Shown: one piece after another, positions 11,079 to 48,506 of the stretch | Layout: each line of letters starts with the position of its first letter | Numbering within the stretch: position 1 is the first letter of the stretch | NCBI GenBank assembly: GCA_947589675.1 | Contig: CANQCI010000001.1 | Coordinates: forward strand, 7,156 to 71,155 | Length of the DNA: 64,000 nucleotides | Reading direction: 5' to 3' | Source: an uncultured Bacilli bacterium | Lineage (GTDB): Bacteria > Bacillota_I > Bacilli_A > RF39 > UBA660 | Notes under the pieces: model-generated | Databases searched by the model: none | What the model was told of the DNA's origin: nothing | Seen by the model: the letters and a program-made list of their open reading frames with translations, nothing else | Program-made: the position numbers and the translations under genes

Positions 11079-11104
11079 TTATAATGTATTATACTGGAGG
11101 TAGC

Positions 11105-11854
11105 ATGAAACTAATTGAATTAAAAAAGGTTAGTAAAACATATCCAAATGGGGTTACAGCCTTAGCGGATATATCCGTGCCGATTAACAAAGGCGAATTT
11201 GTGTTTGTTATTGGGGCAAGTGGTTGTGGTAAATCCACATTTGTAAAATTATTATATCGAGAGGAAAAACCAACAACAGGCACAGTTACGATAGGCGGCT
11301 TGAATGTTGGCAAAATAAAAAACGGTAAAGTATATAAATTGCGGCGAAAATTAGGCATTGTATTTCAAGATTACGAAATTAAATTATTAACAAAATTAAC
11401 GGTTTATGAAAATGTTGCTTTTGCTCTTGAATGTGTCGGAATGACTGGTAAGGAAATTCGTCCGAAGGTTATGAAAGCCTTGGAAAGAGTCGGATTGAAA
11501 GATAAAGTACGGAGTTTTCCTAATGAACTATCTGGGGGGGAAAAGCAACGGGTTTGTATTGCAAGAGCAATTGTTAATGACCCCAAAATTTTGATTTGTG
11601 ATGAACCAACCGGAAATCTTGACCCTGAAACTAGTCAAGATATTATGCGAGTAATTGAAAATATCAATAATGAATTAGGAACCACAATTATTATGGCAAC
11701 TCATGATTTGCAAATAGTTGACCGGATGAAGAAAAGAGTGTTGATAATTCAAAAGGGTGTTCTTACTGATGATATTCCACCTGGGCAATATAAAGCACCA
11801 AAAAAAGAAAAAGGAGAAATTAAGAAAGATGAAAGCAGTAAGGATATTTGTTAG
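11105..11854 (+). CDS. ftsE: cell-division ABC ATPase FtsE
   Basis: MKLIELKKVSKTYPNG... with GASGCGKST, LSGGEKQRVCIARAI and ILICDEPTGNLD. GGAGG RBS before ATG 11105. Confidence 0.85.
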   Translation: MKLIELKKVSKTYPNGVTALADISVPINKGEFVFVIGASGCGKSTFVKLLYREEKPTTGTVTIGGLNVGKIKNGKVYKLRRKLGIVFQDYEIKLLTKLTVYENVAFALECVGMTGKEIRPKVMKALERVGLKDKVRSFPNELSGGEKQRVCIARAIVNDPKILICDEPTGNLDPETSQDIMRVIENINNELGTTIIMATHDLQIVDRMKKRVLIIQKGVLTDDIPPGQYKAPKKEKGEIKKDESSKDIC

Positions 11855-12722
11855 AAGTGTTAGAGATGCTCTGAAAAGTTCGATTCGGAATTTTAGTTTA
11901 AGTTTTGCTTCGATTATGTGTACAACAGTAACTTTAATTCTGGTCGCAGTGGCAATTGTTTGTGCGGCTAATGTCGAAAAAGCAACAAAGTCCATCGAAG
12001 ATGAAATGAGTATCGTGGTTTATTTAAATCAAAATGTTACGGAAGAGCAAATCAAAAATGTAGAAATTGATATTAAATCCCGAAGTATGGTAACAGATGT
12101 TATATTTAAAAGTAAAGACGAATGGAAAATGGAACTGGCTAAATACTCTACTACTTTTGAAACAGCTTTTAACTTTATTGGCGAAAATCCCTTAATGGAT
12201 TCCTTTACTGTTAAAGTTGATGACATCAAAAAATTAAGTGATACAGCTAAATATATCGAAACAATTGATGGTGTTGAAACTGTTAAATATGGGGAAGAAA
12301 TGGTCGAAACAATAATTACAATCTTTGATGTTTTACAAAAAGTAGTATTAGTAATTGTTGTTTGTTTATTAGTGGTAACCGCTTTCTTAATTACTAACAC
12401 AATTAAACTTACGATTTTAAATCGTCAAAGTGAAATTCAAATTATGCGTTTAGTTGGGGCTAATAATGCCACGATTAAATTACCATTTATTATTGAAGGT
12501 TTAATTATCGGAATAATTGGTTCCATAATTCCAATATGTGTTACTATTTATGGTTATGTAATTTTATATTCTCGCTTAGAAGGACATTTATTTACAAATA
12601 TGCTTCAACTAATAAAGCCATATAATTTTGTTTTTGCAGTTTCGTTTGCTTTAGTAATAATTGGTGGTTTAGTGGGGATGTATGGAAGTTTAAGAGCTGT
12701 TAAGAAACATTTGAAAATATAA
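11829..12722 (+). CDS. ftsX: cell-division permease-like protein FtsX
   Basis: MKAVRIFVRSVRDALKSSIRNF N-terminus, an extracellular domain, and four C-terminal TM helices. It directly follows ftsE. Confidence 0.75.
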   Translation: MKAVRIFVRSVRDALKSSIRNFSLSFASIMCTTVTLILVAVAIVCAANVEKATKSIEDEMSIVVYLNQNVTEEQIKNVEIDIKSRSMVTDVIFKSKDEWKMELAKYSTTFETAFNFIGENPLMDSFTVKVDDIKKLSDTAKYIETIDGVETVKYGEEMVETIITIFDVLQKVVLVIVVCLLVVTAFLITNTIKLTILNRQSEIQIMRLVGANNATIKLPFIIEGLIIGIIGSIIPICVTIYGYVILYSRLEGHLFTNMLQLIKPYNFVFAVSFALVIIGGLVGMYGSLRAVKKHLKI

Positions 12723-12768
12723 AGGAAGTGATTATATAAAAAGATTTGTTTGTTTATTAATAAGTATC

Positions 12769-14052
12769 TTGGCTTTAAATATTTTTTGGACACCTCTGGT
12801 AGTTAATGCTTCATCTGAGCCGAACACCATTGCCGAGTATAAGAAAGCTTTAGATGAATTAAAAGCCAAGAAAAATAAAGTTGATAATGAAAAAAAATTA
12901 ACCCAACAGGAAATTCAAGCCAAAAATAATGCCATTAATAATGCTCATAAGCAAATTGAAGAAAGTGAAGCCAAAATCACTGAGGCTAAAAATGATATAA
13001 CCGCTAATGAGGCAAAAATTAAAGAATATGAAACCCAAACTAAGGAATTAATGAGTTTTTATCAAGTTATGGATGGGGAAAATATTTATTTAAAATTTAT
13101 TGCAGATGCTTCAAGTATGACGGATATGATTATGCGAGCTGATGCCATAAGTAAAATAACGGGATATAATCAAACTAAATTAGAAGAATTAGATAAATTA
13201 ATTGGTGATTTACAACAAAAGCAAGTAGATTTAAAAAATTATGAAAAAGAATTAAATAATAATATTACAGAATTTGAAAAGAAGATTGATGAACTAGATT
13301 CTAATTTATTAGCTTTTGATGAAGACCGAGTTAGTATTGATGAAGATATTGAAATGGTTACGCAAAAGTTAAAATATTTACAAAGTTTAGGTTGCGGAGA
13401 TAATGAAACATTACAAACTTGCCAAGATAACAATTTTAAAAAACAACATAACTGTAATTTAAATGAATCAATGGATGCTTGTTACAAAAAAATAGAAGCG
13501 GAAAGCAAGAAAAATAGTGGTAGTAGTAAAGATTATATTCCGTATGCTGTTGCTAATACAACCTTTTATAAACCAGTTTCTAAAGGTCGAATTTCCAGTG
13601 ATTTTGGTTACCGAAGTGTCAGTGGGCAATCAAGCAATCACTCTGGTATTGATATAGCTCTTACGGAAGGAACTCCTGTTTATTCCATGATTAATGGTGT
13701 TGTTTCCATTATTACTCGCAAATCAAGTTGTGGTGGTAATAAAGTTTATGTAGAAGGAACTGTTAATGGGCAAAAATACACCGTAGTATATCTTCACTTA
13801 TTATCAATAGATTCTAACATTAAAGTAGGAACTTATGTTACCTATAATACCATTTTAGGTAAATCGGGTGGTGGTTCTACCGCCAAAAGAAATGGTGGTT
13901 ATGATACTTGTACAACCGGAGCCCATTTACATGTGTCAGTTTCTAAAGGTTATTATGTAAATGATGCCAAATATCGGGCAAATTTAATTCGTCCACCAGG
14001 GTTTCCCAAAAAAGGTGCTTGGTTTTATTCAAGAACACAATGGTTTGATTAA
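12769..14052 (+). CDS. secreted coiled-coil M23/LytM peptidase (EnvC/PcsB-like FtsEX partner)
   Basis: Signal-peptide-like ...LALNIFWTPLVVNASS, a ~200-aa coiled coil, and a C-terminal M23 motif HSGIDIALTEGTPVYSMINGVV. The annotated start is TTG; the signal-peptide N-region extends upstream, possibly to ATA 12736. Confidence 0.8.
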   Translation: MALNIFWTPLVVNASSEPNTIAEYKKALDELKAKKNKVDNEKKLTQQEIQAKNNAINNAHKQIEESEAKITEAKNDITANEAKIKEYETQTKELMSFYQVMDGENIYLKFIADASSMTDMIMRADAISKITGYNQTKLEELDKLIGDLQQKQVDLKNYEKELNNNITEFEKKIDELDSNLLAFDEDRVSIDEDIEMVTQKLKYLQSLGCGDNETLQTCQDNNFKKQHNCNLNESMDACYKKIEAESKKNSGSSKDYIPYAVANTTFYKPVSKGRISSDFGYRSVSGQSSNHSGIDIALTEGTPVYSMINGVVSIITRKSSCGGNKVYVEGTVNGQKYTVVYLHLLSIDSNIKVGTYVTYNTILGKSGGGSTAKRNGGYDTCTTGAHLHVSVSKGYYVNDAKYRANLIRPPGFPKKGAWFYSRTQWFD

Positions 14053-35921: not shown

Positions 35922-36923
35922 ATGAAGAAGTTTTTAGAAAATTATAAATTTACAGATTGTTTTGAGAGTAATATACTTTCTCGTGGGGAAAGATATTACC
36001 AAGAAAATAGAATTTTAGATATATGGTATCAAGATAATAATGTTTATGCTTATGTTGATGGTTCCCAAATTTATAAAATTGGCTTAAAAATTATTGATGG
36101 GGAAATCAATGACTGCTATTGTTCTTGCCCTTATTCAGAACATGGCGAATATATGTGCAAACACCTTGCCGCTGTTTTATATTATCTAGCTGAAAATATG
36201 ATTCCCGAATTGGAAATGGATAATAAAAATAATAAAAGAGTAGATAATGAATCTATGAAACTCAATAAAATTTTTGATGATATGCAATATGAACTAGATA
36301 CAATAAGTGATAGTGATGGTTTTGTAAATTATTATAATGGTAAATATTTTGTAGATTTAATAGAAAATATTTCAGATAAAATAGAAAGTTTTATTGAAGC
36401 AGAAAACTATAATGATGCCTTTTTATTAATAAAACATACTTATTATTTTATAAAAGATACAAGCATGGATGGTTCGAATGGCGAATATCAGGATTCATTT
36501 CGCAAATTGAGTGAGGCAGCTAGCCAATTATTATATGAAGAAAATTATTATCAAAATTATTTAGAATGGGCAAATGATGTTGCTGAGAATGATGATTTAG
36601 ATGATTTTTCTGATGCTCCTTTGTATGCTTTTATTCTTTATGTTCATGATAAAAGTTCTGCTCAAAAAGTAGTTGAAATTTTAGATAATTGTTCTCTATC
36701 ATATGGTATTTTTATTAATAATGTAATAGATCGCATATTATTAGTTCATGATTATATTGGTACAGACGAAGCTATAAAATTATGTTATCAAAATATTGAT
36801 ACTTTTAGAGTAAAAGATAAGTTAATTGAATATTTAGAAGAAGAAAATAGAATAGATGAAATGATAAAACTACAAAAAGATGATATAAAAAATTCTCCAC
36901 ATAATAAGGCGGATTATGATTAA
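35922..36923 (+). CDS. SWIM zinc-finger domain protein
   Basis: CYCSCPYSEHGEYMCKHLAAVLYYL matches the CxCxnCxH SWIM signature. Confidence 0.65.
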   Translation: MKKFLENYKFTDCFESNILSRGERYYQENRILDIWYQDNNVYAYVDGSQIYKIGLKIIDGEINDCYCSCPYSEHGEYMCKHLAAVLYYLAENMIPELEMDNKNNKRVDNESMKLNKIFDDMQYELDTISDSDGFVNYYNGKYFVDLIENISDKIESFIEAENYNDAFLLIKHTYYFIKDTSMDGSNGEYQDSFRKLSEAASQLLYEENYYQNYLEWANDVAENDDLDDFSDAPLYAFILYVHDKSSAQKVVEILDNCSLSYGIFINNVIDRILLVHDYIGTDEAIKLCYQNIDTFRVKDKLIEYLEEENRIDEMIKLQKDDIKNSPHNKADYD

Positions 36924-38592: not shown

Positions 38593-41451
38593 TTAAATAT
38601 CTAGTTTTTCATATCTTGAGTAGTTGTTATCTGTTACCCAAATATTTACAGGACAATTATGGTGTTCTTTTAAATATTTTATATAATCAGCAATAGTATA
38701 TGTATCTAGCCATTCTTGATTATAGTTATTGGCTGGATTTTTTTCGTTAATTTTTTCTAAATTTTCTTTAAATTTTTTATAAGAATAAATGGTGGCTTTT
38801 TTATTATCTTTTGAAACTGCATAAAATACTTTCTTATCTAAAATATTGGTATCTTTAATTTCCTTGAAGATATTTGTAACTAAATTTTTGTTTTCTGGTT
38901 TACTATACCCGCAGATAATATCATAGCTTATGGCAAAATCACTCCCTAATTTTTGAGCTAAATCTTCGATATCTATGTCGTATTCTTTTTTAATTCCGTA
39001 GTATTTTAAAATTTCATAACGATTTTTGACAATCTCAGCAAATTCGTTTTTAAAATAGTGATTTTTGTCTAAACCATTTGCCATATCTAATAAATGTTTA
39101 TGAATACCATTGGTTCCCCCGATAACACCATCATCAATTTTTAATTCAATAAATTTAACTTTTTTATGTTCAAAATCAATAAATATATTATCAATACGTC
39201 CTTTTTTATTTTCCCGACTTCTTCCATTTTCAGGTATTGTTTCATCTTGGTTGTTTTCTTCATCAATTTCTTGTTCACTTTCTTTTTTTAAGTCTTTATT
39301 TGAAGCATAGAAAGTAAATTCCATTTCAAAAGGTATATCATTTTTCGTAAAAGGAGAAAGGGAAGCTTGAGCCATATCTTTTCTTCCTATTTTTGTTGCC
39401 ATTTTGGAAACTAAAGTTTGTTGAAAACTTTTTTCGCTATCAGTTCGAGTTTTAGCAAAGTCATTATCATAGTTACCTGCAAGTCCGGCGTAAATTTCAG
39501 CTCTTCTGGTCATAATATCCATTAAAGTATCAAAAGAAGTGCTATAATCAAATGCCGTTTCTTTTAGTCTAAAATTTACTTGTAAAGATTGAAAACCAGT
39601 TGGTTCTTTTGTTTTTAGATACTCATCATTTTCTTTTTTTAATTTAAAACCAGTTTGGGTATAACAAAGTAATTTTAATTTAAAAGCTTTTTCTAAATCA
39701 ATACTTTCTTCTTTGTTTATTGTTAAACAATAGCCTTTAGCTTCACCTTTATTTCTTGGGAAATATTCTGTAAAGTCATCGATTGGGACAATTGCTTGCA
39801 AATTTTCTTTAATTCGTTGGGCATTTTTTAGTTTATCTACTCCTTTTTCACTTGTTGAAAAAGGTAATTTAAATTTATTACTGGCATATTCTAATTTAAA
39901 ACCAATTGTCTTTAATGATTCATAATCATCGTTTACTTTTTGGTATGGTTTAATTTCGGTTATTTTATTTGCACAGGCTAACTCCATTAAATCATCGGCG
40001 TTGGTGTAATTAGGCAAGAACAATGAAACATTTAATATAATAGCCCCATTATAAAAATCAAATAATTTTACTCCTTTATAATAAACTTTAACTTCTGGCT
40101 TTTCTTTGGTGCCCCTGATTCTTAAACATATGTTATTTTTATCTTTTGATGGATTATAAAAATAATTAAAAAAATGGGTTGCTTTTTCTTTATTATCCAT
40201 GCTTACTTCGACATCTTCATTTTCTTTAACTAATATTACATTATCAAGGACATTTACTAGTTCTTCTGGTTTAGTTGTATGAATGGGAATAACTTTTTGA
40301 GCCTTTAGACTATTAAGTAAAGCAATTGTTTGGCGATCAGCATGACCTGATGTATGTAAATCAACAATCTCCTTGATGCCATATTTTTTAATTTCGTCTA
40401 AAAAGTTTTGCATATCTTCCTTTTCTTTATAACCACTCCACATAGAATAAATTAGACAGGCATTTGTAATATATCCTTTGGAAGCAAGCTTTTGAATTGC
40501 TTCTAACATGGAAGCTTTTATTAGAAAACAATATTTTTTATTTTGATAAGCCTTTTGTTTTGCACATCTACGAAGATTATTCACATACTTTTGTTTAAAT
40601 TCTAAACTCTTTCTTAAATATTTGGAAATTACCCATACATATACATCGTCATTATCATATGGATTAGGAATAGTAGCATCTTTTAAACGAACAGCTAAAT
40701 TGGCTGTAAACAAATCTTCAATAAAAGTTTTTCCTGTCGTTTTAGTGACTTGATAAAAACCTTTTAAACGATCGATATTAGTGGATGATTGTAAGATAAA
40801 AACTTGATCATACTTCTTAAAATATTCCTTAGCTCTGATCATTAAATGTTCTTCCGTTTCGTTGACAACTTCTGGGCGACTTAAGGAAGTCCCCTCAGTT
40901 ATAAGCATATCTACATGACCAATGGCTTTTAAGGTGGGCTTGAAATCCTTACCATTTAAACCATTATTACGAAAGTCGCCAGTATGAAGGATTCTTTTGC
41001 CATCCGCTTCGATTAAAATCATGGCGGAGTGATAAGCGGAATGATCGACAAAGTAGGGGGTAATTCGCATATCTTTAATTGTAATAGTTTTATTAAAAGG
41101 CATATCTAAGGTATTAAAACGGATACTTTTGGAGGTAAAAACTGATAATAATGTATATATTTTTTTCGAAATATCTTCAACATAAACCGGAATATCATCT
41201 AATATATAGTGAATTAAACCAATATGATCCCCATGACTATGGGTGATAAAGACCGCATCATACGTTTTATCCCCAGTTGTTAAACCATCAATCTTCGGAT
41301 TTTTGATTCTTTTTGTGGCATTATCATCCGGTAAATCTTCCCCAAAATCAATAATAATTCGTGTTCCTTGATTACTGGTAATTTCGGTAATACAACCACC
41401 AATTTGGTTGGTACCTTTTAAAATTCTAACTTTCATTTTTACATCTCCCAT
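38593..41451 (-). CDS. large two-nuclease-domain protein: N-terminal MBL/beta-CASP (RNase J-like) plus C-terminal PD-(D/E)xK-like domain
   Basis: N-terminus: FITHSHGDHIG (HxHxDH) ... later HTSGHA (beta-CASP motif C-like). C-terminus: GRIDNIFIDFEHKKVKFIELKID (D...ExK). The start may be the second ATG (41436), which has a GGAGA RBS. Confidence 0.55.
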   Translation of the reverse strand: MGDVKMKVRILKGTNQIGGCITEITSNQGTRIIIDFGEDLPDDNATKRIKNPKIDGLTTGDKTYDAVFITHSHGDHIGLIHYILDDIPVYVEDISKKIYTLLSVFTSKSIRFNTLDMPFNKTITIKDMRITPYFVDHSAYHSAMILIEADGKRILHTGDFRNNGLNGKDFKPTLKAIGHVDMLITEGTSLSRPEVVNETEEHLMIRAKEYFKKYDQVFILQSSTNIDRLKGFYQVTKTTGKTFIEDLFTANLAVRLKDATIPNPYDNDDVYVWVISKYLRKSLEFKQKYVNNLRRCAKQKAYQNKKYCFLIKASMLEAIQKLASKGYITNACLIYSMWSGYKEKEDMQNFLDEIKKYGIKEIVDLHTSGHADRQTIALLNSLKAQKVIPIHTTKPEELVNVLDNVILVKENEDVEVSMDNKEKATHFFNYFYNPSKDKNNICLRIRGTKEKPEVKVYYKGVKLFDFYNGAIILNVSLFLPNYTNADDLMELACANKITEIKPYQKVNDDYESLKTIGFKLEYASNKFKLPFSTSEKGVDKLKNAQRIKENLQAIVPIDDFTEYFPRNKGEAKGYCLTINKEESIDLEKAFKLKLLCYTQTGFKLKKENDEYLKTKEPTGFQSLQVNFRLKETAFDYSTSFDTLMDIMTRRAEIYAGLAGNYDNDFAKTRTDSEKSFQQTLVSKMATKIGRKDMAQASLSPFTKNDIPFEMEFTFYASNKDLKKESEQEIDEENNQDETIPENGRSRENKKGRIDNIFIDFEHKKVKFIELKIDDGVIGGTNGIHKHLLDMANGLDKNHYFKNEFAEIVKNRYEILKYYGIKKEYDIDIEDLAQKLGSDFAISYDIICGYSKPENKNLVTNIFKEIKDTNILDKKVFYAVSKDNKKATIYSYKKFKENLEKINEKNPANNYNQEWLDTYTIADYIKYLKEHHNCPVNIWVTDNNYSRYEKLDI

Positions 41452-41457
41452 TCTTTT

Positions 41458-42504
41458 TTAATGAATAATATACCAAGCATTTCTTTTAAAATCATAGCCG
41501 ATATTTTTATAAATTTTATTATAATCATGCATATAACGTTCGACACTTCTAAGGGTAAGCGAAAACTTTTTAGCAATTTCCTTAGTCGTAACTATATCCT
41601 TCTTTTTTAAATAAAGATGGATTTTTTCTAAAGATGCTTTTTTGTTTTTGGATAGTTTTATTTTTTTACTATTTAAAAGATATTTATAATAAAGTTCAAG
41701 GATAGAGTCATCATCAGGATATTCTTGATTAACGAAATAAATATTACTATATTTTAAATGATAAAAATTTAGCTTTTTTTCATCCTCGGTAAGTATATAG
41801 ACAAATTGAAAGTGATTAAATAGTTTACGATATTTTTTATCGATTTCCATAATCTCTTTTAAGGGTAACTTATCTTCGCCGATAATCAGTAGAAACCCTT
41901 GTTTCCTTTTTAAATCTTCCAGTTTATCAACTTTCTTTATATACGGAAAATGGAAATGATTTTCCTTAGTAAATTCATCTAGTTCTCTTTTATCGATTAA
42001 AGAATAATATAGGGAACCACAAAGATAAACGTTTCGTGACATTTGGGCTAAATCACTATCTTTAGGATAAATTTCAAATACTTTTAAAGGATAAGATTGT
42101 GCATCAATTTCCTGTAGTAATTCTTGTTGTCTTCTCAAAATATAAAAATATTCAGTCTTTTCATAATCACAAACTATTTTTAAAACTTTAGGTTCAATTT
42201 TTAAAAAAATAATAAAATCACAATCAACAATTTGGGTACTAAATAAAGGCTTTCCTTTTTCAATTTTGATTTGTTCTTCCATTCTTTTTCGTTCATTATC
42301 TGTTACATACCATTTTTCAATTGCCCCAAATTCTTTAATTAGTAATTCATCTAAGACATGATTATAAAGTTTTCCCATAGCCATAAATTGATAAATCTTT
42401 TGGATGGAAGTTTCACTGGCTGATAATACTAAAACTTTTTTATCTTGATTTTCTAAAAGAATTTTTTTTAACCGATTTAACTTTTCATTCATATTTTTCT
42501 CCAA
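41458..42504 (-). CDS. hypothetical protein with a C-terminal helix-turn-helix
   Basis: C-terminal ...DIVTTKEIAKKFSLTLRSVERYMHDY is HTH-like. It lies 6 bp upstream of the 952-aa gene. Confidence 0.45.
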   Translation of the reverse strand: MEKNMNEKLNRLKKILLENQDKKVLVLSASETSIQKIYQFMAMGKLYNHVLDELLIKEFGAIEKWYVTDNERKRMEEQIKIEKGKPLFSTQIVDCDFIIFLKIEPKVLKIVCDYEKTEYFYILRRQQELLQEIDAQSYPLKVFEIYPKDSDLAQMSRNVYLCGSLYYSLIDKRELDEFTKENHFHFPYIKKVDKLEDLKRKQGFLLIIGEDKLPLKEIMEIDKKYRKLFNHFQFVYILTEDEKKLNFYHLKYSNIYFVNQEYPDDDSILELYYKYLLNSKKIKLSKNKKASLEKIHLYLKKKDIVTTKEIAKKFSLTLRSVERYMHDYNKIYKNIGYDFKRNAWYIIH

Positions 42505-42556
42505 AGAAACATCTGTTACTATATATTTATTATAGCATGTCTTGATAATAATGAGG

Positions 42557-43129
42557 TTAAAAATTTTTCATAGTTAAATGATTAATAGAACTTACTTGCC
42601 AATTGGTGAAATTATATTTTTTAAATCCTTTTTCATTCATAAATAAGATAATTTGGGCATTATATCTTTTACTATATTTTTCAATGGTATTTTTTAGACA
42701 TTTAAAACTTTTGGTAGTATTTTTTAATAAATCTTCTAAACTATCAATAATAATCATTTGATATTCATTATCAAAATCAAAGATAATATCAACCCAGTCT
42801 TGTTCGGGAAATACTTTAGAACTACTAATAACTATATTAGCATGTCTAACTTTTTCTAAAGCTAAAATAAAATCTTGGACATTTATTTTTTGTTCTTTTA
42901 AAGCATTGGTTTTAGCTCCCACGGGAAACATATAGCTTTCTATTACTTGAAAATTAATTTTCGAAAGATGCGAGATTAAACGATTAACGTAATAGGAAGT
43001 ACGTAACAAAAAAGATTGCATATAAATAGTTTTTTGTTCTTTGATACCATATAAATCGAGAATATTAATAAGGAGAGGAATCCTTTCTTTAGGATTCCTG
43101 CTATAAATTAAAGATATACGTTCATTCAT
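42557..43129 (-). CDS. hypothetical protein (190 aa)
   Basis: ORF overlapping the upstream gene by 4 nt (ATGA). No motif recognised. Confidence 0.4.
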   Translation of the reverse strand: MNERISLIYSRNPKERIPLLINILDLYGIKEQKTIYMQSFLLRTSYYVNRLISHLSKINFQVIESYMFPVGAKTNALKEQKINVQDFILALEKVRHANIVISSSKVFPEQDWVDIIFDFDNEYQMIIIDSLEDLLKNTTKSFKCLKNTIEKYSKRYNAQIILFMNEKGFKKYNFTNWQVSSINHLTMKNF

Positions 43130-43890
43130 AGCTCATCATCAATTTTCAACACCTTATCTGTTTTTGAATCTAACTCAATCAAAAAAGTTTGCTCAAATAA
43201 ATTAAGGCTAACTGTTAATGATTCTTTATTAACATTTGATACTTTCCCCACCATATCTTTAAAAGCACCATTTAATATTTGCACTTTATCATCTTTCTTA
43301 ATATCTTCAAAAGCTGTGAACTCTTTTGGAATTTCTTCTTTCTTAGTGATTGTTCTTTCTTTAAGATAAGGTCGTAAATCAAATGGTTGGGGTTTTACTT
43401 CTGGGACATCTAATCCATAAAAATATTTATTGATACAAAATATTTCAAAATCTCTTGTTTGATTGGCTAGGGCTACATCATAATCATAAAATTCGAAGAC
43501 ATAATCAATATATTCATCAAGTCCTTCCATGTTTTTGTTTGCTCTTAATGCCTTACATTGGGTAATGATATCTTCATTTTCCTTGAGTAAATCATTTAAT
43601 TCATCGGGGTTATAATGATATTTTTTTGAGTAACTAGCCATCGGCAATTTTGGTAAGGGGGCTTTTACTTTGGCAACTTCTAGTCCATAAAAGTACTTCA
43701 CAATACAATATAAGATATATTTAAATTCCAAATCGTCCTCATGATGCATTGCCATATAAATTAATCGGTTAATATATTGTCTTACTCCTTTCTTCCGATA
43801 ATTCTTTTTTAATTCAAGCATTTGTTCAATAATGTTATCTTTTGACCTAATGATGTTGGCTACCTCCTTCGTTGCTCTAATAGAATACAT
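43126..43890 (-). CDS. KOW-domain protein with an internal tandem repeat (NusG-paralogue-like C-terminus)
   Basis: The C-terminal KDDKVQILNGAFKDMVGKVSNVNKESLTVSLNLFEQTFLIELD matches the NusG KOW pattern. Two internal repeats, KYFYGLEVAKVKAPLPKLP and KYFYGLDVPEVKPQPFDLRP. No obvious NGN domain. Confidence 0.5.
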   Translation of the reverse strand: MYSIRATKEVANIIRSKDNIIEQMLELKKNYRKKGVRQYINRLIYMAMHHEDDLEFKYILYCIVKYFYGLEVAKVKAPLPKLPMASYSKKYHYNPDELNDLLKENEDIITQCKALRANKNMEGLDEYIDYVFEFYDYDVALANQTRDFEIFCINKYFYGLDVPEVKPQPFDLRPYLKERTITKKEEIPKEFTAFEDIKKDDKVQILNGAFKDMVGKVSNVNKESLTVSLNLFEQTFLIELDSKTDKVLKIDDEL

Positions 43891-44151: not shown

Positions 44152-44394
44152 ATGGATAATGAAAACATGAATAATAAAATAATTATTAATGGAATAGAAT
44201 ATGAAATTGTAGCTTATTTAAAAAATGAGAATGGAAATTACTTAGTTTATACAGATGGAAAAATATTAGAAAGTAATAATGTTGCTCTTTATGTAAATTT
44301 AGTAGTTATAGAAAATGGTGAATTTAAATTAGAAAGTATTGATGATACAGAAGTTTCCAATGTTATTGAATTATTGAAAGAGAGGTTAAAATAA
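44152..44394 (+). CDS. small DUF1292-like protein (80 aa)
   Basis: IEYEIVAYLKNENGNYLVYTDG ... VIENGEFKLESIDDTE..VIELLKE pattern. Paralogue of 61384-61632. Confidence 0.4.
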   Translation: MDNENMNNKIIINGIEYEIVAYLKNENGNYLVYTDGKILESNNVALYVNLVVIENGEFKLESIDDTEVSNVIELLKERLK

Positions 44395-45713
44395 TGATTA
44401 TATCATCTAGATTGGTAGAATTAATGAATTATAAAGATTTTTTAGAATATGAAATTAGACTTCGAGAAACTATTAGACCTTTTGATTTTGTGTATTTAAA
44501 CGGCAGGGCTAATAAGACATTAGGAACATTAAAAGCTGCTTTAGTTGAGATGGAAAATATTTTAGTTAATATTGAACAAATCACTAAATTAAGTAATATG
44601 TTAAATGATGTAAAAAAAATAAAACCTTTACAACAAGAATTAGAACAAAATAGGAAAGCTAAAGAAGCTGTTAAAAATATTGATACTATTAGTAATGATG
44701 TAAGGAAAGATTTAAACGGGTTACAAGAACAATTTTTTACTCAACTACAATATTGTTATGACTTGAAAAATAAAGTTGCTCAACAAATTGTTGATTATGA
44801 AGAAAGAAAAAACTATGATAAAAAAACTGAAGAGTTTGCTTCTTTAGCTCGCAATTCTTTAGTAAATAAAGGAAGGGTTCCTTTTCAACAAGAAACCTTG
44901 CTGCAAGATGCAAATGAAAAAGTAAAAGAACATGATGAAAAAGCAACTACAATAGATAAAGATTATGCCTTTTTAAGTAGTCACGAAAATACTTTAGATA
45001 GAGCTCTAAATGCTTTGGAGGATATTTTAAAAACTCCAGCTACTTTTTCGGAAAGACAAAATGTTGGGTTACAAACTAAAATTAAAAAGGAAGTAGCCAA
45101 CATAAAAAAAGCCTTACCACCTAAAGTTATTTTGGTTTCAAAAGAGTCATTGAGTAAATTAAGAGAATCTGATCAATTAACCAATGATTTAAGATTTATT
45201 CAAGCTTTATTACAAAATCCCCCAACTTTAGTCAATAGAAGTTATTGGGAATATAATGCTCGAATAGATAAAATTAGAAATTTATTAGATCAAGCTTTAC
45301 AATTTGAAGAAAAAAGAAAATCTAATATTGAACAAGAACGCAATACAATAGCCAAAAAAGAAAAGTTTGCTACCGATGCGGTTAATAAATATGCTAATAT
45401 TTTAAATGATAATCAAATAACTCAACAATCGCAAATTCATATTGAAAATGGTCAATTTGATTTACAAGCTGAAAATGAAAGATTAAAATTGGCACGTGAT
45501 GAAGCCTATAGAAATGGTGATTACGAAAAAGCTCGAAGTATTCAAGAAACCATATCTGCTAACGAAAAAACTATCGCGGGAATAATGAGTAAAAGTGCTG
45601 TTACCACATTACCTTTAGAGTATACGGATATGAAACAAAAATTAAAGAATATGAGTTTTTTATATCAAAATGATGATTCGCAAACTTTATCAAATGAAGG
45701 AAGACCGAGATAA
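44394..45713 (+). CDS. hypothetical coiled-coil protein (439 aa)
   Basis: Helical and coiled-coil throughout. Translationally coupled to its flanking small genes (TAATG overlaps). Confidence 0.45.
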   Translation: MIISSRLVELMNYKDFLEYEIRLRETIRPFDFVYLNGRANKTLGTLKAALVEMENILVNIEQITKLSNMLNDVKKIKPLQQELEQNRKAKEAVKNIDTISNDVRKDLNGLQEQFFTQLQYCYDLKNKVAQQIVDYEERKNYDKKTEEFASLARNSLVNKGRVPFQQETLLQDANEKVKEHDEKATTIDKDYAFLSSHENTLDRALNALEDILKTPATFSERQNVGLQTKIKKEVANIKKALPPKVILVSKESLSKLRESDQLTNDLRFIQALLQNPPTLVNRSYWEYNARIDKIRNLLDQALQFEEKRKSNIEQERNTIAKKEKFATDAVNKYANILNDNQITQQSQIHIENGQFDLQAENERLKLARDEAYRNGDYEKARSIQETISANEKTIAGIMSKSAVTTLPLEYTDMKQKLKNMSFLYQNDDSQTLSNEGRPR

Positions 45714-46000
45714 TGTCCCAAAAACAAGATGTATTTAATTCTTTTATGGATGAGTTTGTTAAACTAGACATAAGTCAAAAGAACCACGAAATAATTGAAA
45801 AACAAAAATTAATAATAGCTTTTTTATTTAAGTATGCTACGGAACATGGAATAAAATATGAATCTATAAAAAGTAAAGAAATTAATGATATTATGGAAAA
45901 TAAGGGAACTAATGAAGACTATTTAGAGGCTATGATGGTTTATACTCATAATATTGAAGAATTAATTGGACTTATTTTAAATCGAGGAAATTATAAATAA
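45713..46000 (+). CDS. small helical protein (95 aa), paralogue of 61089-61382
   Basis: EAMMVYTHNIEELIGLIL aligns with EAVFVYINAIKELIGNYV in the 61089 ORF. Confidence 0.4.
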   Translation: MSQKQDVFNSFMDEFVKLDISQKNHEIIEKQKLIIAFLFKYATEHGIKYESIKSKEINDIMENKGTNEDYLEAMMVYTHNIEELIGLILNRGNYK

Positions 46001-46036: not shown

Positions 46037-46245
46037 TCTTTCGTTACAGTTCAGTCAGATAAATACAGGGATTGAGGGACATTTTTAGTATAAAAATAAT
46101 GTTTTTTAGCAAAAATTCAGTCAATATTTATAATTTTTGCTCTAAAAAGAGAATTTGATACTTTATTAAAAATATCTATTATTCCCATTAATTACAATGG
46201 TTTATTTATATTTTTAATTCCTTGACTGAACTGTAACGTTCTTTC
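46036..46245. mobile_element. MITE-like element / IS footprint: 16-bp perfect terminal inverted repeats flanked by a 7-bp direct repeat
   Basis: TTCTTTC[CGTTACAGTTCAGTCA ...165 bp... TGACTGAACTGTAACG]TTCTTTC. The interior is non-coding and holds a nested IR GCAAAAATT/AATTTTTGC. Confidence 0.45.
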
Positions 46246-46333: not shown

Positions 46334-47413
46334 ATGAAAAAAGATACTTATGTAAATTATATAAAATATACTTTAAGCACCTATAATAAAGCAAATAAGA
46401 GAGAATTAATAAAGTTATATAAAGATGCTAATTTAGTAAAGGAAAAAAATGCTTATCCAACTATATTTGATGATGATTTAGTGGATATAGATTATACTAA
46501 TATGGATAATACTATTATTGATTGTATAAAAAAGCATGATGAGGCAATTGAAATATATGAAAAATATCAATTTACAAAAGCATATAAATATGCCGTTTTA
46601 TTTAAATGTTCTGATTTTGAAAAATTGTTATTAAAAATAGATGAAATCGCTGAATATGAATATAATAATACCAATGTAAAACTATTTGATGAATTACAGC
46701 AGCCCACTAAAATAATATATAATAATGACAGTATATTATTGTTTAATAAAAAGTTTGAAGCTGTACACCCTCAAACTGGGGAAGAATTATTATTACATTA
46801 TCCATTATTAGCCATAGTTCACAAAGAAAGTAAACTTGTTGAATTTAGATTTGATACAATAAAAAGGCTGTTTACTGATGGAGATAGAGACCAAAATATA
46901 TATGTGAAATTGATTGATGAATTAATAAATTATTTTAAAACAACGTTCGACAGTGATTTGTTGGCTATTAATTTAGATTTTATGATTGAAATAACAAAGG
47001 AGGAATCTAATAAAAATATTAAATTATTATCGCAATACATGTTTTTAAAAGATGGTGGTAAAGCCCAATTAACAGTGGGCAATAATGAAGAATATGTGTT
47101 ACCAATTATAGGAGAATTAAAAAACATAATCAATGAATTAAGAGAAGAACTAGACAAAAATGTCAAAATTAAAGACGCTTTAGAACAGTTTGTATATGAA
47201 AAAGAAGAAACGACAGATTATCCTTGGATTGAAGTTTTATTTTTGGATGAAGAGGGAATAAAAACTAGAAATAATCATGTAAAATTTACATTTAACTATA
47301 TGAACAGAAATTATTGCTTAATAACATATTATTATAATGATACATTAATTGAAATGGAGAGGATGAATAATGTCACAAGATTTATTGGAAAAAATATTGA
47401 AAGACAAAATTGA
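46334..47413 (+). CDS. hypothetical protein (359 aa)
   Basis: First gene of a tightly overlapping three-gene operon. No motif recognised. Confidence 0.45.
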   Translation: MKKDTYVNYIKYTLSTYNKANKRELIKLYKDANLVKEKNAYPTIFDDDLVDIDYTNMDNTIIDCIKKHDEAIEIYEKYQFTKAYKYAVLFKCSDFEKLLLKIDEIAEYEYNNTNVKLFDELQQPTKIIYNNDSILLFNKKFEAVHPQTGEELLLHYPLLAIVHKESKLVEFRFDTIKRLFTDGDRDQNIYVKLIDELINYFKTTFDSDLLAINLDFMIEITKEESNKNIKLLSQYMFLKDGGKAQLTVGNNEEYVLPIIGELKNIINELREELDKNVKIKDALEQFVYEKEETTDYPWIEVLFLDEEGIKTRNNHVKFTFNYMNRNYCLITYYYNDTLIEMERMNNVTRFIGKNIERQN

Positions 47414-47714
47414 TTTAAATCTTGATGAAGCGATAAAATTTTTAATGAAATTTAAAAAAAATGAATATATTTATCCAAGTACAATTAAAAGAAATTTAAA
47501 GATAGATGATAAAAAAGTTTATGAGGTATTAACACTATTGGAAAATGCTGGTATTATAAAAATGTATTATGAATTTTTTTGCTACAATTGTAATAATTCA
47601 AAAGGTTTGTATACCTATTTTAATGAATTAAACGATGAATTAGTTTGTGATTATTGTGAGAATAAACTAAATAGTAATGATAATATTAAAATAGTGTATA
47701 AGGTGATTAAATAA
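47370..47714 (+). CDS. small winged-helix plus C4 zinc-ribbon protein (114 aa)
   Basis: ...KVYEVLTLLENAGIIKMYYEFFCYNCNNS...CDYCENKL. Overlaps the upstream gene by 44 nt. Confidence 0.45.
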   Translation: MSQDLLEKILKDKIDLNLDEAIKFLMKFKKNEYIYPSTIKRNLKIDDKKVYEVLTLLENAGIIKMYYEFFCYNCNNSKGLYTYFNELNDELVCDYCENKLNSNDNIKIVYKVIK

Positions 47715-47716
47715 GC

Positions 47717-48412
47717 ATGAATGATATAGATAGTATAACAACGGCGTTTAAAAATTTGGGTAATGAAATATCTTATAAAAAAATATGCGAATTTACCGAT
47801 AATCAAAGAAAAGAATATAAAATTCTTTTAGCTAATTTAGAAAAAGTAAATTCAACAAAACAATCATCAAGCGAAAAAGGAAAGGCACTTGAAGATATTG
47901 CTTCATTTGTTTTAAAAACAAGCAATATTTTTGATGTGTATCAGAATATATTGACTTCAACAAATGAATTAGACCAATTAGTTAGAACTAATAATAAAGG
48001 TAAAATTTTATTTTCGAATGGGATAATTGATAAAAGACTAAAAAGTTTTATATGTGAATGTAAAAATCATAAAGAAAAAATTTCTGTAACTTATGTTGGT
48101 AAGATATGCAGTTTATTATCTACAACAAAAAATAAAATTTGTATTTTATTTTCTTACTATGGAGTTTCTGGTAAAGAATGGAAAGATTCTGTTGGATTAA
48201 TAAAAAAGTTTTATTTGTCAAAAGAAAATGAAGAAGATAGATATTGTATAATAGATTTTAATATAAAAGATTTTATAAGTATAGAAAAAGGTAACAATAT
48301 TCTTCAAATTATAGAAGATAAAATTTTGGCTTTACAAAATGATACTAATTACATATATTTGTTAAGTCCACATGAATCGGAAAAGAAAGTATTAGAATTA
48401 CAAGAAATATAA
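47717..48412 (+). CDS. restriction-endonuclease-fold (Mrr_cat-like, PD-(D/E)xK) protein
   Basis: GKALEDIASFVL ... TNELDQLVR ... FICECKN ... ILFSYYGVSGKEW fits the Mrr catalytic-domain pattern (E...D...ExK). Confidence 0.5.
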   Translation: MNDIDSITTAFKNLGNEISYKKICEFTDNQRKEYKILLANLEKVNSTKQSSSEKGKALEDIASFVLKTSNIFDVYQNILTSTNELDQLVRTNNKGKILFSNGIIDKRLKSFICECKNHKEKISVTYVGKICSLLSTTKNKICILFSYYGVSGKEWKDSVGLIKKFYLSKENEEDRYCIIDFNIKDFISIEKGNNILQIIEDKILALQNDTNYIYLLSPHESEKKVLELQEI

Positions 48413-48506
48413 TCGGATATATTTCTTTTTTTATTGACTGAAATATTTTTCTTCCCTTATAAGCCAAAATATGTTAAGATAGAAAAATTAAAAAGGGGGA
48501 AAACTG

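Follow-up and report, generated by a model that had tools for sequence, protein, structure and literature searches.

A cassette of three overlapping or closely abutting genes (A, B and C) in a 64,000-nucleotide stretch of DNA from an uncultured Bacilli bacterium of the RF39 lineage (contig CANQCI010000001.1, positions 7,156 to 71,155 of the forward strand; hereafter, the window) very probably functions as a single module whose effector is a nuclease, a conclusion in which our confidence is high. On the basis of its genomic context, we propose that this triad is a self-contained and undescribed nuclease-based phage-exclusion system, acting against phages or other mobile genetic elements. We give this reading a probability of roughly 0.55, because the three genes are strictly linked, co-evolving and horizontally mobile, occupy accessory positions and end in a gene for a predicted nuclease. 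The genes, and the translation signal embedded between the first two, are arranged in window coordinates as follows.

46334–47413, forward strand: gene A, an open reading frame (ORF) of 359 amino acids (aa), encoding the signature protein of the cassette
47370–47714, forward strand: gene B, an ORF of 114 aa in the +1 frame relative to A
47717–48412, forward strand: gene C, an ORF of 231 aa
47355–47361, forward strand: the Shine–Dalgarno sequence of B, GGAGAGG, inside the codons of the GMERMN motif of A and 8 nucleotides (nt) 5′ of the ATG of B

An ORF check reproduced exactly the coordinates of an initial annotation made from the DNA letters by a model, with a 44-nt overlap between the end of A and the start of B and a gap of 2 nt between B and C. 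The translational coupling claimed there is borne out by tight junctions that are kept across loci. Each gene has a Shine–Dalgarno-like sequence of its own (in addition to that of B, AAAGGA 5′ of A and AAGGTGA 5′ of C). The GMERMN motif is among the conserved features of the A-family alignment, with Arg343 and Met344 invariant and Met341, Glu342 and Asn345 near-invariant, and it is the codons of this conserved Met-Glu-Arg-Met-Asn run that spell the Shine–Dalgarno sequence of B. Because that signal is embedded there, its preservation and that of the N terminus of B may account for part of the conservation of the motif at the protein level. The N terminus of B (MLSNTL) is itself conserved and the overlapping start is therefore genuine; more generally, homologues are so numerous that A, B and C must be real genes rather than chance ORFs. 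Prediction of promoters in this AT-rich DNA by a simple scan was uninformative, with 29 promoter-like sites observed and 26.8 expected.

Homologues of A and C, counted at ≥45% identity in a word-indexed search, numbered 130 and 111, respectively, none of them with a Pfam domain; the same search gave 16 homologues of B. An exhaustive profile search of 1.84 billion representatives resolved the A family into 299 clusters at 50% identity, its members all about 350–380 aa long and free of fusions. When one genome per species was scanned with profiles, 27 loci were recovered, all in Firmicutes and among them Bacilli metagenome-assembled genomes, Lachnospiraceae, Peptacetobacter, Faecalibacterium and Coprobacillaceae, together with Proteiniclasticum, Robertmurraya, Metabacillus and Lysinibacillus. 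The contexts of three distant C homologues each held an overlapping trio of about 358, 117 and 231–246 aa.

We fetched 37 other loci through A or C and ran hidden Markov models (HMMs) of A, B and C on all of their ORFs. The order A-B-C on a shared strand was found in 37 of 37 loci, as in the window, and an A/B overlap of 35–110 nt in 36 of them; the B/C junction is in nearly all loci either a gap of up to 3 nt or an overlap of up to 11 nt. Linkage, which the initial annotation had suggested examining through genomic neighbourhoods, is thus strictly kept and not incidental. Among viral sequences, the full triad is present on 13 of 15 IMG/VR contigs (of the remaining pair, one is truncated where the contig stops and one has decayed), and A and C both occur in the same 14 phage records. 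Protein identity across triads falls to about 24–30%, and the pairwise identities of A, B and C correlate with r = 0.90–0.92 over 26 non-redundant triads, which indicates that the three genes are inherited as a block. A conserved fourth gene was sought in the neighbourhoods of the loci and none was found. The PHROGs database holds all three families (17559, 18087, 18586 and 6350), each listed as of unknown function.

The AlphaFold model of C (predicted local distance difference test score (pLDDT), 87.5) presents the canonical αβββαβ core of PD-(D/E)xK nucleases, formed by a helix (residues 51–68), three strands (72–79, 85–91 and 110–115), a second helix (124–137) and a final strand (141–145), and flanked by an N-terminal helical extension (residues 1–68) and C-terminal helices. 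The Mrr-like ELD…ECK pattern and the nuclease fold anticipated in the initial annotation are therefore both recovered, the fold in the model and the pattern as an invariant feature of 47 aligned C sequences, in which Glu84, Asp86, Glu114, Cys115, Lys116, Lys54 and Glu59 do not vary. Glu59, Asp86, Glu114 and Lys116, which fall at PD-(D/E)xK positions in the model, are the putative catalytic residues. Eight of ten distant C orthologues match Mrr_cat at 18–22.6 bits, two of them above the gathering score of 21, and a Staphylococcus orthologue is labelled in UniRef as a type IV Mrr-domain protein. By alignment and model, C is a predicted nuclease consisting of a catalytic domain only, a divergent relative of the Mrr_cat and FokI-like cleavage domains; no winged helix or Mrr_N domain was found in its N terminus and no recognisable DNA-binding domain elsewhere in the protein.

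For A, as for the C protein of the window itself, searches of Pfam, NCBIfam, PADLOC and the PDB (by phmmer and by profile) returned no significant sequence family, and 59 members of the A family gave only noise against Pfam (T6SS_VipA in 11, with a best E value of 0.027). The initial annotation, which had called A unrecognised, was right as to sequence family; A is, however, not featureless. Its model (pLDDT, 85.6; predicted template modelling score, 0.85) comprises an N-terminal helical part and two α/β modules, and the predicted fold resembles that of RdgC, the ring-shaped DNA-binding protein (RdgC/CENP-N/Iml3–Chl4 scaffold). The relationship suggested by the model is at the level of fold only. 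RdgC (PF04381) matched neither A nor any of the 59 family members at E ≤ 1, and alignment of the A profile by hhalign gave a probability of 0.2% against Escherichia coli RdgC and no signal against λ RexA. RexA was also absent among the best 60 matches of A, and a Foldseek search of the BFVD viral structures with the A model returned nothing at E ≤ 1e-3; one match was to a ‘recombination-associated protein’ (probability, 0.85; template modelling score, 0.32).

RexA, RdgC, IML3 and CHL4 have been described as sharing one DNA-binding scaffold, which thereby includes the λ exclusion protein RexA (PMC11077077), and in this light the triad bears comparison with RexAB and with RdgC. Like λ RexAB, it is a prophage-encoded accessory module in which a DNA-binding component of RdgC fold would be paired with an effector. 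Unlike RexAB, it has no RexA homologue detectable by hhalign and no multi-pass transmembrane partner equivalent to RexB: A, B and C are all soluble, the maximum Kyte–Doolittle value over a 19-residue window being below 1.0 in each. From RdgC itself, A differs in its greater length, in an extra N-terminal helical region and in the lack of detectable sequence or profile similarity; it is carried on mobile elements together with a nuclease, whereas RdgC is a chromosomal single gene.

Protein B is predicted to consist of a winged helix at about residues 20–66 followed by a C4 zinc ribbon (Cys71, Cys74, Cys93 and Cys96), its four cysteines being about 90% or more conserved among 24–29 distinct sequences. 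The winged helix draws weak HMM matches to TrmB (1e-3), DUF2250, TFIIE_alpha and FUR and, when the B profile is compared with the PDB, to the eS25 winged helix (1.3e-4), Fur and RPC6; the ribbon matches the ClpX zinc-binding domain and MCM. These matches, weak and consistent with one another, agree together with the conserved cysteines with the small winged-helix protein bearing a CxxC…CxxC ribbon that had initially been annotated.

The pairing of B with C raises a sub-case of the phage-exclusion reading, namely that the triad is a split type IV (modification-dependent) restriction enzyme in which B would be the DNA-reading head, C the Mrr catalytic domain and A an accessory or regulatory protein, and which would cut modified phage DNA directly, with no methyltransferase needed. 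Canonical Mrr carries a winged-helix DNA-reading head at its N terminus. The triad shares with Mrr and type IV enzymes (Mrr_cat, PF04471) the PD-(D/E)xK core with its E…D…ExK motif, the winged-helix module accompanying the nuclease and the lack of a cognate methyltransferase; no methyltransferase is conserved among the neighbours of the triad, N6_Mtase being found in 2 of 150 flanking ORFs, both of MmeI type. It departs from Mrr in that its winged helix stands on a separate polypeptide, with a zinc ribbon, and in having an obligatory third, larger protein of RdgC fold. We consider this sub-case unlikely: B has no match to Mrr_N or to the modified-base readers SRA, YTH/EVE and ASCH, no PADLOC type IV model matched the triad, and no known type IV enzyme provides a role for A, the largest and an equally strictly conserved component. 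A different split arrangement is offered by the small subunit of R.BspD6I, which depends on a large partner in the way that we propose for C. Sequence identity to the R.BspD6I/N.BspD6I type IIS enzyme and to the FokI cleavage domain is, however, only 8–13%, the partner in the triad is not a nuclease-containing recognition subunit, and no methyltransferase is linked.

The cassette is mainly accessory cargo of prophages and other mobile elements of Firmicutes. In Staphylococcus phage Henu2 (Phietavirus; locus L038, record 11094–13103), the triad is gp12–14, between the endolysin and the integrase in the classical lysogenic-conversion slot, and in Clostridium tetani phage phiCT9441A it is gp75–77, between the endolysin and attR. 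Orthologues are widespread in S. aureus, the exact C sequence being present on 927 contigs and the A sequence on 435. Prophages from gut metagenomes carry the triad between an integrase and an XRE repressor, with ERF/RecT, SSB and related genes coming next. Other copies share integrase-bounded islands with genes for MmeI-type IIG restriction, GmrSD and OLD/UvrD, lie beside a UvrD-like helicase and Dcm methylases or stand, as small three-gene insertions, among housekeeping genes. A plasmid collection yielded one weak match only, on a C. butyricum megaplasmid. At 26 distinct loci, the 150 ORFs lying within 3.5 kb of the triad included 11 HTH_3 (XRE), 10 Phage_integrase (tyrosine) and 3 Resolvase (serine recombinase) genes; this census also found DUF961, Rep_trans and FtsK genes as in Tn916-like elements, holin and amidase genes, and single matches to type IIG restriction–modification, DRT, GajB-like, SspH and DrmMI. 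The triad is thus largely the cargo of phages and mobile elements, yet its linkage is strict, and it does not correspond to the unlinked phage cargo that the initial annotation had named as an alternative.

Proximity of some copies to an integrase would also be expected if the triad performed housekeeping for the mobile element, through control of recombination, excision or the lysogeny switch. Precedents for such roles exist: RecA is modulated by RdgC, RexA tilts the λ switch, and the excision of an element is under the control of XisH, which is a PD-(D/E)xK protein. We nevertheless regard this as quite unlikely, as many copies, that of the window among them, lack a recombinase within 3.5–10 kb, their neighbours being housekeeping genes or the Wadjet system considered below; in Henu2 the integrase separates the triad, which occupies an accessory slot, from the regulatory module; and the orientation of the triad and its side relative to the integrase vary between loci.

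Further information on the roles of the components comes from decayed copies, listed here with the coordinates recorded for each locus. Several of the source sequences are metagenome assemblies, and some of these copies may be assembly errors.

L006, 8604–9688: frameshift in A; B and C intact
L022, about 10870: in-frame stop in A; B and C intact
L032, 10001–10516: 5′ truncation of A; B and C intact
L018, 11034–11398: frameshift in B
L042, 6486–7176: C split
L057, on a viral contig: C missing

These copies bear on the possibility that the triad is a tripartite toxin–antitoxin or addiction module stabilising the mobile element, in which C would be the toxin, B and/or A would neutralise it and any effect on phages would be secondary, through abortive infection. 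Such a module would account for small, tightly coupled genes that are carried by mobile elements and of which the last encodes a nuclease that could be toxic, and the helix-turn-helix-type protein in the middle could serve as an antitoxin that regulates its own operon; regulators of XRE and RmrA-like type are often found nearby. The copies in which A is broken keep C intact, however, and A is therefore not an essential antitoxin; loss of A, tolerated in L006, L022 and L032, is better suited to an activator or sensor. In addition, no toxin–antitoxin-type model in PADLOC matched, a protein of 359 aa is atypical as a component of such systems, and the Staphylococcus and Clostridium phages carry the cassette in the lysogenic-conversion position and not in a maintenance module. 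An addiction module is, on this evidence, improbable.

Against PADLOC-DB v2.0.0 (2023, including PDC candidates), the best E values were 0.012 for A and 0.046 for C, with none for B, and no match was significant; no restriction, Abi or other defence model was matched, in line with the initial annotation, which knew of no described system with this set of genes. Nor did Pfam, NCBIfam, PDB sequences or literature searches contain a described system for the triad, or a solved structure related by sequence to A, B or C. The parts, a nuclease of Mrr/FokI type and a winged helix with a zinc ribbon, are familiar; their combination with an obligatory RdgC-fold protein and no ATPase is undescribed in anything that we searched, PADLOC-DB 2.0.0 included. 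Hachiman (HamAB), Lamassu and Wadjet are defence systems in which a nuclease effector operates with a separate DNA sensor. The triad differs from all of these in having no helicase, SMC protein or ATPase, and none of their PADLOC models matched it.

In the phage-exclusion system that we propose, the three proteins would form a complex. Protein A, with its predicted RdgC fold, would be a DNA-engaging sensor or clamp that recognises invading or replicating foreign DNA, for example through DNA ends or through recombination or replication intermediates. Protein B, as an adaptor or specificity subunit that binds DNA, would link A to C and may also autoregulate the operon, while C would be the effector, cutting DNA only once recruited or activated by A and B. 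Several points weigh against this reading. The function is assigned through guilt by association, and recognised defence genes lie within 3.5 kb of the triad at a minority of loci only. For B, the assignment of a fold comes from weak HMM matches, and the C protein of the window itself falls below Mrr_cat detection at E < 1. Moreover, A is acidic (isoelectric point about 5.1, with a median of 5.1 for the A family), unlike the naive expectation for a non-specific DNA binder, although such an overall value is uninformative about a ring-shaped dimer with a basic DNA-binding pore.

If the triad does act against phages, it would represent a defence architecture without an ATPase, helicase or SMC protein, in which a bare nuclease domain works with a protein of RdgC fold and with a small protein that carries a winged helix and a zinc ribbon. 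Three families that are now wholly ‘hypothetical’ would gain a function, and the long enigmatic RexA/RdgC scaffold would gain a second, mechanistically tractable effector. A more specific and decidedly more tentative proposal is that the triad defines a new class of prophage exclusion in which a clamp of RdgC/RexA fold (A), sensing phage DNA or intermediates of its replication and recombination and acting via a winged-helix/zinc-ribbon adaptor (B), licenses a split-Mrr nuclease (C). Were this so, the triad would be a soluble, nuclease-armed counterpart of λ Rex, which would suggest that RdgC-fold proteins serve bacterial immunity as a general sensor module not recognised until now. The presence of orthologues in cultivable S. 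aureus temperate phages and C. tetani prophages makes the system directly testable, and gives it relevance to phage therapy and to prophage-mediated superinfection immunity in a pathogen.

In the window, a complete type II Wadjet system (JetA2, JetB2, JetC2 and JetD2) begins 94 nt downstream of C on the same strand. The spacer (48413–48506) contains a promoter-like TTGACT-18-TATAAG, and no intrinsic terminator was detected by a simple scan of the DNA from C to jetA, so that read-through from the triad into Wadjet is possible in this genome. This arrangement would suit a triad that serves as an accessory part of JetABCD, and the placement directly upstream of Wadjet given in the initial annotation is correct for this genome. 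It does not extend to a general link: the other 37 loci, covered with flanks of up to 10 kb, contained no homologue of JetA, JetB, JetC or JetD, the flanking census contained no Jet families, and the triad–Wadjet arrangement is confined to contigs of this same strain. As no other locus has Jet genes, the adjacency is a coincidence of this genome. We attach almost no probability to an accessory role in Wadjet, which as a general statement is refuted by the 37 loci.

On its other side, the triad is preceded by a short repeat-bounded unit.

46042–46238, no strand assigned: adjacent element of 197 base pairs with perfect 16-nt terminal inverted repeats at 46042–46057 and 46223–46238 (CGTTACAGTTCAGTCA)

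The 16-nt arms occur within the window in just these two copies, with 0 expected by chance. The initial annotation had called this element similar to a miniature inverted-repeat transposable element; the inverted-repeat unit is indeed present, but it occurs as a single copy in the window, and its status as such a transposable element and its mobility are therefore unsupported.

Further upstream, a second coupled trio (44152–46000, forward strand) encodes a DUF1292-like protein (80 aa), a coiled-coil protein (439 aa) and a third protein of 95 aa, with overlapping start and stop codons. It had no matches to families or defence models, and its association with the triad is limited to contigs of the same strain. 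Next to it, a four-gene block on the reverse strand (38593–43890) shows inverted GC skew and may be a separate inserted module; its proteins, none with a PADLOC match, are a 952-aa metallo-β-lactamase-fold/RMMBL protein, a 254-aa protein with a KOW motif and two proteins of 348 and 190 aa without a family. About 10 kb upstream of the triad, at 35922–36923 on the forward strand, lies the gene for a protein of 333 aa with a SWIM zinc finger (Pfam SWIM, 7e-9; PADLOC PDC-S62, 6e-11), which may be another defence-related gene.

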